Source: a virus. Taken from it: 20,096 nt of DNA. The stretch's first letter is position 1. Each line of letters starts with the position of its first letter. Position numbers and translations under genes: made by a program. The stretch is from the UHGV virus genome UHGV-1724231; one strand, 5' to 3'. Under the pieces are notes generated by a model. The model was not told the DNA's origin, ran no database searches, and worked only from the letters and a program-made list of their open reading frames with translations. Of this stretch, positions 15,901-20,096 are shown in pieces.

Positions 15901-15928
15901 AAGGCTCCCGTAAAAAGGAGCCTTTTTT
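15901..15928. terminator. Bidirectional rho-independent terminator between convergent transcription units
   Basis: AAGGCTCC-loop-GGAGCCTT stem followed by TTTTTT on + strand; on the - strand the same hairpin lies just 3' of the thymidylate synthase stop and is followed by a U-rich tract. Confidence 0.7.
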
Positions 15929-16833: not shown

Positions 16834-17379
16834 TTAGAAACGTCCTCTTACTTGTGGAACATAAATGTTGAATACAACGCTGTCATCTTTCGATGGTTTT
16901 GACTGTATTCTAGCAAAAGTTGACTCATCATACAAGTACTCAAAGAAACCCTTATAAGGCAGCTTAACAGTTGCTTCTTCAGTCACTTCACGGATATATG
17001 TTTGACAAATTGCATCTGCATATGGTAAAGCTTGGATAAGAATACCTGCTCCACCAATTATACAAACATCTTGCTCAATACTACTATCCAGATGTTTTAA
17101 GAATGCCCCAAAAGCGTCTGGGTGAACCTTAGCAAACATTACATCTTCTCTACCAAAATCTATACCTTCATACGGTAATGAGTTTGTCAGAACAAGATTA
17201 TCACGGTCTGGTAAAGGTTTACTTCCAAGACTCTTGAAAGTGTCATTACCCATAACTACCAATTGACCTGTAGTAATCCTCTTGAACTCTTGCATATCTT
17301 GCTTATTACGAGGCCAAGGCATACCAGAGGGGCAACCAAACTCCCCGTTAATACCGTTTGCAAAAACCAATTTAATCAT
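16834..17379 (-). CDS. folA: Dihydrofolate reductase
   Basis: 181-aa ORF with DHFR-like motifs (GMPWP near N-terminus, LVVMGNDTFKSLG, PLPDRDNLVLT, CIIGGAGI); 1-nt gap to thyA, matching the known frd-td pairing in large lytic phages. Confidence 0.75.
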   Translation of the reverse strand: MIKLVFANGINGEFGCPSGMPWPRNKQDMQEFKRITTGQLVVMGNDTFKSLGSKPLPDRDNLVLTNSLPYEGIDFGREDVMFAKVHPDAFGAFLKHLDSSIEQDVCIIGGAGILIQALPYADAICQTYIREVTEEATVKLPYKGFFEYLYDESTFARIQSKPSKDDSVVFNIYVPQVRGRF

Positions 17380-17648
17380 TGTGTGAACCCTTTTACAATA
17401 AACCAGTTAGCAATATTCTTCACAGTTTTTACTGGATGGAATACTAAGCGTGGTTGTGGTTGATAACTGCCATAAGCCCAGAAAGAGATGATGTTGTCAC
17501 AATCAGTGCAACGTGTGTACTCTTCTGCTACGTTCCCTGCCACAATCTCTGTAATCTCACCTTGGAAATTTGTACCCCCACAATGGGGGCATTTTAGAGG
17601 TTCACCATCTTGGTTGTAGCATTGCTCAAACTTCTCAAAAAGTTTCAC
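17376..17648 (-). CDS. Small zinc-ribbon protein, unknown function
   Basis: 90-aa ORF with CPHCGG…CTDCD (two CxxC pairs); GTG start with AAGGT RBS; stop overlaps the folA start (ATGA). Confidence 0.5.
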   Translation of the reverse strand: MKLFEKFEQCYNQDGEPLKCPHCGGTNFQGEITEIVAGNVAEEYTRCTDCDNIISFWAYGSYQPQPRLVFHPVKTVKNIANWFIVKGFTQ

Positions 17649-17699
17649 TTTTTGTTTACCTTAAAAGCTTGCTGGATATCAACTACGAAGTCTAAATCA

Positions 17700-18158
17700 T
17701 CACACTAGGAAATCTTCAAAGTGTTTTGGTATAAAACTTAGGAAATCCATAGAACCCAAATCACCTACTAAGCGAATGTAATAATCGTTCTCGCAAGTTG
17801 CATTAACTACATGTCGGCCTATGTATGGCTTCACAACCTCTCTGATATCATCTATGAAGATGTTCAGAAGAGTTTTGAAGGATTTAGGGTACTGAGTTCC
17901 TCCATACAAGTCAATGCTTGCTTCAGTCTTTACAGAGATTGATTTAGCATCTCTGAACTCAGTTGCGAACAGATGAGCAGGAAGAATACAAAGTGAGTCC
18001 CCAGTATCTTCATCAACCAACTCAATAGTTCCTGCATCATAGTTTGTTTTAATCAGTATTTCACCTTCTTGTGACTTTTTGGTTTCAAGGTGAGTGGTGA
18101 TAATACCTCTCAACATTGATGCTTCTGGGAGCAGTAAGTTGATTCCAATCTTTTGCAT
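17700..18158 (-). CDS. Hypothetical protein
   Basis: 152-aa ORF, coupled to the upstream gene (1-nt gap); no recognisable motif. Confidence 0.5.
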   Translation of the reverse strand: MQKIGINLLLPEASMLRGIITTHLETKKSQEGEILIKTNYDAGTIELVDEDTGDSLCILPAHLFATEFRDAKSISVKTEASIDLYGGTQYPKSFKTLLNIFIDDIREVVKPYIGRHVVNATCENDYYIRLVGDLGSMDFLSFIPKHFEDFLV

Positions 18159-18159
18159 G

Positions 18160-18663
18160 TCATACCTCTACAAAGGTGTTTTTGTCATTATCAAACTTGA
18201 AGAATTTTATACACTTCTGAGTCTTCCAGTCAATCTTTTGGTCATAAGAAAGACCTTGAGAGACTCTCTTACCAACTGTTTGATAGATAATTTCACGAAG
18301 AGCATCATATTCCTTCCAAGCTCTTGTACCAATAGTTATATTGGCTCTCTTATAGCTCTCAACAGCTTGCTCATTCCAACGTTGCTCACTAACACTACCA
18401 ACTTTGTAGAGTCTTGGAAGAAGCTCATAACCCATTTGACCTTTCTCTCTGGCAATCTTTAGGTTATGAAGGTACTCGTTAAGGCGACCGTCTTCTTCAA
18501 GCCAACGATAAAGACTCTGGAGACCAAAAATCTCGTTGTTGAAGTGAGCAGCACGTTTCACAGAACCTAAGTCAGCACGATAATCTGATTTAGGGAGGCT
18601 TAGAATACAATCTTGTAATACATTGTATCCAAAGTACAAGTTCAGTTTTACGGGAAGAGACAT
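18160..18663 (-). CDS. Hypothetical protein
   Basis: 167-aa ORF, overlaps the upstream gene by 16 nt; no recognisable motif. Confidence 0.5.
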   Translation of the reverse strand: MSLPVKLNLYFGYNVLQDCILSLPKSDYRADLGSVKRAAHFNNEIFGLQSLYRWLEEDGRLNEYLHNLKIAREKGQMGYELLPRLYKVGSVSEQRWNEQAVESYKRANITIGTRAWKEYDALREIIYQTVGKRVSQGLSYDQKIDWKTQKCIKFFKFDNDKNTFVEV

Positions 18664-19013
18664 TTAATATCCTCATTTTTAAAGGTGAACGTGGTGTAGT
18701 TAGTCCCGTCAACATTTAGCCAGATAGCCTTAACAGATACACCATCAATATTGCCAAACAGTTCTTTGATGAACTTGTTACGAACATCATGAGCACAAGT
18801 TGTCTCAAGCTTAATGTTAGAGATAGCGGAGCCAATTGTCATATAACCAGCAATACGACTCTTCTCAGTATGCTTGATTCTTCCTTCTTGATACATCTGC
18901 TTCAGGACTCCCAAGAGTTCTTCACCAAATGACTTCTCAGCACTCGTCGGTTTCCCGTAGAAACCAAGTGCAAAGTTGTCGTTGAAAATTGCATTCTTAC
19001 GTTTCATAATCAA
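18648..19013 (-). CDS. Hypothetical protein
   Basis: 121-aa ORF in the same coupled operon. Confidence 0.5.
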   Translation of the reverse strand: MIMKRKNAIFNDNFALGFYGKPTSAEKSFGEELLGVLKQMYQEGRIKHTEKSRIAGYMTIGSAISNIKLETTCAHDVRNKFIKELFGNIDGVSVKAIWLNVDGTNYTTFTFKNEDIKCLFP

Positions 19014-19309
19014 TCTGCCTTACTTAAGTTGAAGTTTAAACCAAGTTTATCACAAATACTAATCATGTAGTCAAGCGAAACTTTACCGCTACCGTTTAAG
19101 ATGTTTGAAACTCTTGCTTGAGAAATCTCACAAATCTTTGCTACCTGAACTTGTGATAGATTGTTTCTTTTCATGTGAATGTGGAGTTTCTCAGAGATAT
19201 AGAACTTCATCTCATCCACATCCATTCCAGCTATGTATGTTTCCATTTCAGACTCTCTATCAGCCTCCCAAGAATCTTGAGGTGCATAAGGGTCGAAGAC
19301 TTTATTCAT
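19010..19309 (-). CDS. HTH (XRE/Cro-C1-type) DNA-binding protein with acidic N-terminal extension
   Basis: 99-aa ORF; C-terminal helix-turn-helix signature LSQVQVAKICEISQARVSNILNG; ATGA overlap with the downstream gene. Confidence 0.6.
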   Translation of the reverse strand: MNKVFDPYAPQDSWEADRESEMETYIAGMDVDEMKFYISEKLHIHMKRNNLSQVQVAKICEISQARVSNILNGSGKVSLDYMISICDKLGLNFNLSKAD

Positions 19310-19505
19310 CCTTCTTCCTCCGTTTACGCGAAGTGTCTATTAATGAATCTATACTGGTTGCTCTTACATTCTCACGAGTCCCGTTGACGAAGTGGTCTAG
19401 AGCCTCTACAACCGTATTAAAATCCTTAGCCCAAACTCTGTAAATAACTACTCCATCGTCGTCAACAACTTCGCCATAGTCAATTCTACAGATGTTCTTT
19501 TTCAT
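19302..19505 (-). CDS. Small hypothetical protein overlapping the HTH gene
   Basis: 67-aa ORF with basic C-terminal tail (RKRRKKDE); 8-nt overlap with the HTH gene start, 4-nt overlap with the upstream gene. Confidence 0.4.
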   Translation of the reverse strand: MKKNICRIDYGEVVDDDGVVIYRVWAKDFNTVVEALDHFVNGTRENVRATSIDSLIDTSRKRRKKDE

Positions 19506-19882
19506 TGTGGCAGACCCATGCAGTGACGGTTGATGATAAAGTACTCAAACCCATCTAAAACAGACTGTGTAACGTGTTCTTCTACAGCTTTAGTTTCAGA
19601 AATCTGTTCAGAACTTAGAACATCAATATTCTCAGAAACCATCATATCAGCCACATCGTTGTAGTAACCACCCATAGTGTGGTAGATGAGGTCAGTTGTA
19701 CGGTCTGTCATTTCCTGAAAAGTTTCTTGGGTGATTGGGCTAGTTAACTCTCCAGACTTAGAAACAATCTTTTGAGAAAGCTCACAAGACTCCAGTTTAA
19801 CTTTACCGTAGTCCATATTTGGCATAACCGCATAAGCATTGAAGCTTAGTACTGCAAAGAGACATAGTGCAATCTTTTTCAT
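19502..19882 (-). CDS. Secreted/periplasmic protein with N-terminal signal peptide
   Basis: 126-aa ORF; MKKIALCLFAVLSFNAYA has a signal-peptide-like n/h/c region with an AYA cleavage motif; AGGAG RBS 8 nt upstream; first gene of the - strand operon. Confidence 0.55.
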   Translation of the reverse strand: MKKIALCLFAVLSFNAYAVMPNMDYGKVKLESCELSQKIVSKSGELTSPITQETFQEMTDRTTDLIYHTMGGYYNDVADMMVSENIDVLSSEQISETKAVEEHVTQSVLDGFEYFIINRHCMGLPQ

Positions 19883-19922
19883 AACTTACTCCTATATAAT
19901 ATTTTGTATACCTACAAGTATA

Positions 19923-19970
19923 AAAATAAGCTATAACACCTGACTTGTCAACAGATTTTATAGCTTATTT
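19923..19970 (-). promoter_or_regulatory. Candidate promoter (TTGACA-N17-TATTTT) within a 13-bp perfect inverted repeat (possible operator)
   Basis: On - strand: TTGACA (complement of 19946-19951), 17-nt spacer, TATTTT (complement of 19923-19928); arms AAATAAGCTATAA (19924-19936) and TTATAGCTTATTT (19958-19970) flank it. Confidence 0.4.
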
Positions 19971-20009
19971 GGCAGATTTTTTATAAGGCTACTGCCATCC
20001 TTCCATACC

Positions 20010-20096
20010 TTACCATGCCAGACTGGACCCTACCGCACCAAGCCAAGCCACACCGGACATTACTGAACCCAACCTCATTACAAGCCCCTCTTCAAA
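20010..20096 (-). CDS. Partial CDS (C-terminal 28 codons; gene continues beyond window end)
   Basis: - strand frame open from window edge to TAA (complement of 20010-20012): FEEGLVMRLGSVMSGVAWLGAVGSSLAW*; composition differs from the flanking AT-rich spacer. Confidence 0.3.
   Translation of the reverse strand, partial: FEEGLVMRLGSVMSGVAWLGAVGSSLAW

Follow-up and report, generated by a model that had tools for sequence, protein, structure and literature searches.

The genome fragment UHGV-1724231, a stretch of 20,096 nucleotides (nt) analysed here in full and referred to as the window, carries close to one end a gene for a 67-residue protein that overlaps a gene for a 99-residue protein with a C-terminal helix-turn-helix (HTH) domain. 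On balance, we read these as neighbouring early or middle genes that are transcribed together and are probably coupled in translation, and whose products, an XRE-family regulator and an uncharacterised partner, may act together. The pair does not constitute a toxin-antitoxin module, and the HigBA-type reading offered in the initial annotation is unsupported. By sequence the window comes from a Felix O1-like myovirus in the Ounavirinae subfamily and is Mooglevirus-like, with bases 17000-20096 showing 98% identity to Shigella phage ESh21 (Mooglevirus) and 72-82% to other members. The Ounavirinae phages that bear the pair are strictly lytic.

Both open reading frames are genuine genes and not chance frames, since they are annotated as genes in relatives, have low ratios of nonsynonymous to synonymous substitution (dN/dS of 0.04-0.07 in the small gene and of 0.07-0.29 in the HTH gene, values that place both under purifying selection) and retain their overlap in 14 loci. 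The coordinates and the overlap of 8 nt are exactly as the initial annotation described them. At the 14 loci, which represent Mooglevirus-, Suspvirus- and Felixounavirus-type genomes, the gene order is identical, the products have 67-70 and 99 residues, and the 8-nt overlap reads ATGAATAA or ATGAATGA; Felix O1 ORF85 is annotated with 109 residues because an upstream start was chosen. Searches with tblastn return 255 phage records for the small protein and 259 for the HTH protein, almost all named for Escherichia, Salmonella, Shigella, Citrobacter or Felixounavirus and three for Campylobacter/Staphylococcus, and all examined records carrying the pair genes are Ounavirinae. The adjacency and order of the small and HTH genes are kept in every relative found. 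In the distant relative L018 a 1-nt gap takes the place of the overlap, and in metagenomic relatives whose HTH protein is 47% identical a homologous 63-residue gene still lies directly upstream, 1 nt apart.

The junction between the two genes is the best-conserved part of the operon, with 81-87% nucleotide identity between genera over 90 nt compared with ~40-70% elsewhere. This stretch includes the codons for the C-terminal tail of the small protein (SIDSLIDTSRKRRKKDE in the window), whose consensus (N/S)(I/L)DSLIDTSRKR(R/K)KKDE is nearly invariant between genera; the tail codons vary synonymously (TCG/TCT/TCC/TCA, CGT/CGA/AGA/CGC, AGG/AGA, AAG/AAA). The GGAGG of the HTH gene is contained within the final codons of the small gene. 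On the HTH side of the junction, the columns FDPYAPQDxWEADRExEMExY of the N-terminal arm are invariant in the alignment, conservation is higher in the arm than in the HTH domain itself, and the 47%-identical relative retains it as FDPYAPxDDxEAxRxEEM. Across the gene junction the basic tail of the small protein thereby stands opposite the acidic arm of the HTH protein. The constant adjacency and order, the conservation of the junction and the position of the HTH ribosome-binding site inside the small gene together suggest joint action of the two products. Because the pair is kept in relatives at 47% identity and the junction is best conserved, the adjacency appears to be conserved more than the overlap by itself would enforce, and a functional partnership is plausible. 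The coupling of the two genes proposed in the initial annotation is upheld to the extent that the pair is conserved and probably co-translated.

The C-terminal XRE-type HTH earlier read by eye in the 99-residue protein is recovered both by profile and by predicted structure. Matches above the Pfam cut-off were obtained to PF01381 (36.6 bits, cut-off 23; E=4.6e-9), PF13744 HTH_37 (29.7, cut-off 27), PF13560 (29.3, cut-off 27) and PF13443 (24.8, cut-off 22), and the protein matches phrog_1373, 'transcriptional regulator', with E=1.5e-19. The AlphaFold2 model has four helices (residues 31-48, 53-60, 64-72 and 79-88) with predicted local distance difference test (pLDDT) values of 82-90, while residues 1-30 are modelled at ~52. 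A Foldseek search with this model returned 2o38, 2a6c, HipB and C.BclI with a probability of 1.0 and template modelling (TM) scores of 0.6-0.7 (target-normalised), and HigA2 and C.AhdI are also among the neighbours; the E-values were no better than 0.018, and the structural match is therefore generic. Support for the HTH protein as a candidate regulator is thus at the level of the XRE family.

The 67-residue protein belongs to phrog_4473 (E=6e-37), a family of uncharacterised function, and by its distribution is restricted to the Ounavirinae. The protein and six homologues match no toxin, antitoxin, defence or anti-defence family in Pfam (E up to 10), NCBIfam or PADLOC, and the best hit in a sequence search of the Protein Data Bank (PDB) has E=0.36. 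A sub-threshold match to Trans_reg_C was dismissed as noise (seen in 4/7 members, at best with E=0.0088; the window protein scores 12.4 bits, cut-off 26.2). When 1.84 billion representative proteins were searched with a profile, a single cluster (P0007) came out as a credible relative, and three further matches were judged spurious, being to long repeat proteins. The AlphaFold2 model (pLDDT 69 overall and ~87 in the core) consists of a β-hairpin (residues 9-26), a helix (residues 29-49) and a disordered basic tail. Foldseek with this model gave a best PDB hit of E=1.7 and in BFVD matched the protein itself alone; the predicted fold is unlike RelE, ParE or HicA. There is no publication on this small partner.

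The HTH family, on the other hand, is already partly characterised, and orthologues of both genes are already annotated. By sequence and synteny the window HTH protein is the orthologue of Bas63-035, with which it shares 63% identity over 99/99 residues (E=7e-49; 37/99 positions differ). The product of bas63_0036 is 53% identical to the window 67-residue protein, and bas63_0035 and bas63_0036 (99 and 70 residues) have the 8-nt overlap and the neighbours seen in the window. In Bas63, 3/3 independent mutants escaping the DRT7 defence carried start-codon substitutions or a frameshift in Bas63-035, and cell death occurred solely upon co-expression of Bas63-035 and DRT7 (bioRxiv 10.64898/2026.04.18.719102), from which it follows that Bas63-035 is produced in the course of infection, can be lost without abolishing plaque formation and is non-toxic alone. 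Bas63-035 alone did not stimulate DNA synthesis by DRT7 in vitro (bioRxiv 10.64898/2026.04.18.719102). Further reported triggers of DRT7 are λ Gam, a DNA mimic, and a phosphoesterase of Bas1, both linked to DNA metabolism. Within this orthologue group, triggering of DRT7 is reported for the Bas63-035 allele only. The positions of the pair and of the features around it are collected in the table.

Table. Features of the gene pair and of the leftward operon in the window
Feature	Position	Strand	Remarks
67-residue protein gene	19302..19505	minus	ATG start; function uncharacterised; Ounavirinae-specific, phrog_4473
99-residue XRE-family HTH gene	19010..19309	minus	ATG start; orthologue of Bas63-035 (bas63_0035, 'putative transcriptional regulator')
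8-nt overlap ATGAATAA	19302..19309	minus	HTH-gene start codon inside last two codons and stop of small gene
GGAGG Shine-Dalgarno of HTH gene	19317..19321	minus	Within R-R-K codons of small gene; read from sequence
Codons of C-terminal tail SIDSLIDTSRKRRKKDE of small protein	19305..19355	minus	Nearly invariant; part of most conserved stretch of operon
Codons of acidic N-terminal arm MNxxFDPYAPQDxWEADRExEMExYI of HTH protein	19220..19309	minus	Predicted disordered/low-confidence
Codons of HTH domain (residues 31-95)	19025..19219	minus	Recognition helix ISQARVSNI nearly invariant
126-residue protein gene, first of unit	19502..19882	minus	phrog_4332, function uncharacterised; stop overlaps start of 67-residue gene by 4 nt
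σ70-like promoter TTGACA-17-TATTTT	19923..19951	minus	Consensus scan, 10/12 matches; ahead of 126-residue gene
Inverted repeat, hairpin then U-run	19924..19970	minus	19-nt arms, 89% complementary; -35 hexamer in loop
Bidirectional intrinsic terminator	15901-15924		Ends leftward operon at thymidylate synthase; corresponds to t79/t80 of Felix O1

The pair occupies the second and third places in a leftward unit of nine genes encoding, in order, the 126-residue protein, the 67-residue protein, the HTH protein, proteins of 121, 167 and 152 residues, a 90-residue zinc ribbon, dihydrofolate reductase (DHFR) and thymidylate synthase, so that six more genes follow downstream. Consecutive junctions measure +4, +8, +4, +16, -1, -51, +4 and -1 nt (overlaps positive), and as overlapping or abutting junctions are the norm throughout the operon, the overlap within the pair does not mark it out as a two-gene module. 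The 126-residue protein has a signal-peptide-like N-terminus (MKKIALCLFAVLSFNAYA), and its gene is always immediately upstream of the pair. Felix O1 expresses the flanking ORFs 83, 84, 87 and 88 most strongly at 25 min (PMC3185647); temporal control in that phage is not understood, according to the authors of its genome paper (PMC3185647).

The sole candidate promoter upstream of the pair is the one ahead of the 126-residue gene, and the pair itself lacks one. The promoter arrangement is retained in L018, and genomes that lack the surrounding non-coding cassette (described below) have TTGACA-17-TATACT at that place. The inverted repeat around the promoter had been proposed as an operator for the HTH protein. 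Folded as RNA, it reaches -17.3 kcal/mol (z=-5.2). In L018 the hairpin contains one compensatory change from an A-U to a G-C pair and two G.U pairs and still folds at -16.9 kcal/mol (z=-5.4). Changes that preserve pairing through G.U, with the fold retained, favour an RNA terminator hairpin over a palindromic operator; this rests on one comparison, of the window with L018. The repeat is thus likely to be a terminator wrapped around the operon promoter rather than an operator, contrary to the earlier proposal, and the would-be half-site AAGCTATAA shows no enrichment elsewhere in the window. An AT-rich sequence, TATACAAAATATTATATAGGA (19890-19910, minus strand), follows the promoter and precedes the ribosome-binding site of the 126-residue gene; it is present with or without the cassette and across genera. 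It is possibly an operator or a leader element.

In the mechanism that we favour, the HTH protein would be a small DNA-binding protein of HTH_37/HTH_3 type with an acidic, probably disordered arm of 30 residues; by homology it would most likely be dimeric on DNA and would adjust phage or host transcription. As the orthologue of Bas63-035 it would be an accessory protein, made in infection, harmless alone to Escherichia coli and sensed by the DRT7 abortive-infection system. The subfamily-specific protein of 63-70 residues encoded upstream would contribute a predicted core of β-hairpin and helix and a nearly invariant basic tail (DSLIDTSRKRRKKDE). The arrangement of the two genes suggests that their products act together, possibly with the basic tail of one contacting the acidic arm of the other.

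Several observations weigh against this explanation. No DNA target was found for the HTH protein, and the only conspicuous palindrome near the promoter behaves as an RNA hairpin. The sequence TATACAAAATATTATATAGGA, common to both promoter types, occurs once in the window, the stretch searched for it, and a genome-wide scan of Bas63 with the σ70 consensus showed no shared operator-like sequence or palindrome at other promoters. In a comparison of the window with L002, L006 and L009, the HTH gene falls into two allelic classes of ~62% identity, differing mainly in the first helix of the domain, and these classes do not track the phylogeny of the small gene; in L006, for example, a window-type HTH gene lies next to a Moogle-type small protein. 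Such mosaic alleles argue against tight co-evolution outside the junction. Together with dN/dS values of up to 0.29, the allele pattern fits either mosaic exchange or a pressure to diversify a surface that host defences sense. As both the tail and the arm are invariant, covariation is uninformative for a contact between them. Adjacency by itself is weak evidence where phage operon order is conserved throughout, and the Bas63 data come from a preprint, on a protein just 63% identical to the window HTH protein.

The last points lead to the alternative that the two genes are functionally unrelated neighbours, their overlap and adjacency being the product of the compact, colinear gene order of the subfamily, to which we assign a modest probability. 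Overlapping and abutting junctions are typical of the operon, every relative has the block from the 126-residue gene to thymidylate synthase in colinear order, the HTH alleles form a mosaic when set against the small gene, and the overlap is lost in L018. However, chance neighbourhood leaves unexplained why conservation within the operon peaks at the junction and why a basic tail is placed opposite an acidic arm across it, and other genes of the block come and go (the 167-residue gene, upstream inserts) whereas these two are never separated. In a more novel and rather doubtful reading, the two proteins would form a dedicated module in which a tail-arm complex, with the arm capturing its partner as in an antitoxin, times phage transcription or controls a host factor of DNA metabolism, and DRT7 senses that activity and not the HTH protein as such. 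As a more remote extension of the same idea, the small basic-tailed protein might act on the (GGTNN)n array and the ultra-conserved element upstream of the operon. It is quite unlikely, in our judgement, that the HTH protein is not mainly a transcription factor and that its acidic arm targets a host protein, such as a nuclease or recombination factor, with DRT7 sensing the activity by analogy with λ Gam. Such a role would fit the greater conservation of the arm relative to the HTH domain, the ties of the other DRT7 triggers (Gam, phosphoesterase) to DNA metabolism, and the failure of Bas63-035 alone to stimulate DRT7 in vitro, which suggests an indirect route. The recognition helix, however, is nearly invariant, as would be expected for a conserved DNA target, and the proposal draws on analogy only, with no known host partner.

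Two further alternatives start from the position of a small uncharacterised gene directly upstream of a small HTH gene. In an acr-aca type anti-defence operon, the small protein (perhaps also the 126-residue protein) would inhibit a host defence and the HTH protein would repress a strong early promoter. The promoter does lie within a conspicuous inverted repeat, and the HTH gene can be lost under laboratory conditions, as is usual for accessory regulators and for anti-defence genes. We nonetheless hold this to be unlikely, because the small gene is fixed and conserved and not variable cargo (the same protein family is present in 14/14 loci and in distant relatives), because the repeat keeps its RNA pairing through G.U changes that would be intolerable for a palindromic operator, and because the operon runs on into six further genes including DHFR and thymidylate synthase; the text of the PhageMaP paper on gene essentiality in Bas63 names neither g35 nor g36, and its account of the knockout screen gives no anti-defence activity for either. 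In a HigBA-like type II module, the 67-residue protein would be a toxin that the arm of the HTH protein neutralises, and the HTH protein would repress the operon. The order of small gene then overlapping HTH gene would be suitable, as would the low-confidence N-terminal arm ahead of the C-terminal HTH. The HTH_37 domain is common among antitoxins and here scores above the Pfam cut-off, and there are weak matches to the antitoxins HigA2, HipB and PezA. All the same, a module of this kind is very improbable. Profile searches covering RelE/ParE/HigB, HicA and Gp49-like families gave no match for the 67-residue protein and only generic HTH domains for the HTH protein, and at permissive thresholds the 67-residue protein has no toxin family or fold. 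The antitoxin models of NCBIfam are missed by a wide margin (TIGR02607 HigA, 20.4 bits with a cut-off of 47.7; HipB, 20.8 with 79; Y4mF, 27 with 71.65; PezA, 20.9 with 290). The pair is embedded in a nine-gene operon without a promoter of its own and is a syntenic, fixed core element of ~255 lytic phage genomes, not a mobile cassette of patchy distribution, and HTH-null mutants of Bas63 are viable and form plaques.

Upstream of the operon the window contains a non-coding cassette that is stranger than the gene pair. A single-copy non-coding element of 93 nt (19917-20009, minus strand) has 98-100% identity in nearly all of 231 Ounavirinae-type phage records, whereas the genes flanking it have only ~45-85%. 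The element comprises a TGGCAG-N16-CTGCCA repeat, the hairpin described above and the operon promoter; ESh21-type genomes are without the whole cassette and have instead the TTGACA-17-TATACT promoter and a different stem-loop. Upstream of the element, and partly overlapping it, is a GGTNN (RGYNN) array (19990-20084, minus strand) of ~13-16 pentamers in strict 5-nt phase, which is cut by the end of the window at 20096. In the window array 11/12 GG[TC] triplets lie in one phase, which 0/2000 shuffles reached. The NN positions differ between phages, the phase is kept in 8/9 loci, and the array is unique within the window and across the complete Bas63 genome. It is reminiscent of the triplet-repeat platforms of ring-shaped RNA-binding proteins, or of GT-rich recombination or priming sites. 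The corresponding part of Bas63 (27214-27653, minus strand; L015, 7215-7660) is a non-coding region of ~400 nt with two GGTNN arrays and the 93-nt element, a canonical TTGACA-16-TATACT promoter at its start and a hairpin with a U-run at its end, and might represent a gene for a non-coding RNA or a long leader. Rfam contains no family matching the upstream non-coding region of either the window or Bas63.

Other parts of the region vary between relatives. The 167-residue gene (18160-18663) is found in Mooglevirus- and Suspvirus-type genomes and, with 157 residues, in distant relatives, and is absent from the Felix O1 type. The presence of a pair of genes for 200- and 146-residue proteins between DNA ligase and the non-coding cassette varies (L002, L004, L006, L007, L010). 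The 90-residue zinc-ribbon protein (17376-17648, minus strand) has a weak match to Lar, a protein of restriction alleviation (PF14354, E=0.0035), and its positional counterpart, Bas63 gene 32, is described as Lar-like and conditionally essential in the PhageMaP preprint. At the far end of the operon, the terminator at 15901-15924 separates it from the convergent structural/lysis operon.

As a toxin-antitoxin candidate the pair is without importance, since that reading fails. Its modest interest lies in the HTH family, as yet the only one in Felix O1-like phages for which activation of the DRT7 reverse-transcriptase defence has been reported. That the disordered acidic arm is the most conserved part, that the protein is always made with a basic-tailed partner and that the alleles differ mainly in one surface helix provide handles on the triggering of DRT7 and on temporal regulation of the Felix O1 type. 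Phages of this type are widely used in biocontrol and typing of Salmonella and E. coli.

Among known systems, antitoxins of the HigA2/HTH_37 type (PDB 7ewc; HipB, PezA) resemble the window protein in having a C-terminal XRE HTH after an N-terminal extension (~30 residues in the window) and a partner gene that is upstream and overlapping, although HigA2 itself (7ewc) matches the window HTH protein with E=0.002 only. Unlike those systems, the window pair has no RelE/ParE-type partner, does not reach the equivalog models and sits as a lytic-phage core gene in a long operon, its 67-residue partner having an unrelated predicted fold. Aca repressors and the C proteins of restriction-modification systems are likewise small XRE HTH proteins, dimeric in those cases, encoded after or with a small effector gene, and the window HTH protein matches the PADLOC 'Control_protein' model with E=1.6e-5. 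They differ from the window, where a palindromic operator could not be demonstrated, the gene upstream is constant and not exchangeable, and the operon contains no restriction-modification or known anti-defence gene. The closest counterparts are Bas63-035/036 of Escherichia phage JohannRWettstein (Felixounavirus) and ORF85/ORF86 of Felix O1, which form the orthologous pair (99 and 70 residues). The Bas63 pair shares its neighbours with the window pair, having the signal-peptide protein upstream and a 119-residue protein, DHFR and thymidylate synthase downstream. Within this conserved setting the window HTH allele diverges from Bas63-035 in the region of helix 1 (AGMDVDEMKFYISEKLHIHMKRNN), a form common only to ESh21-like phages.

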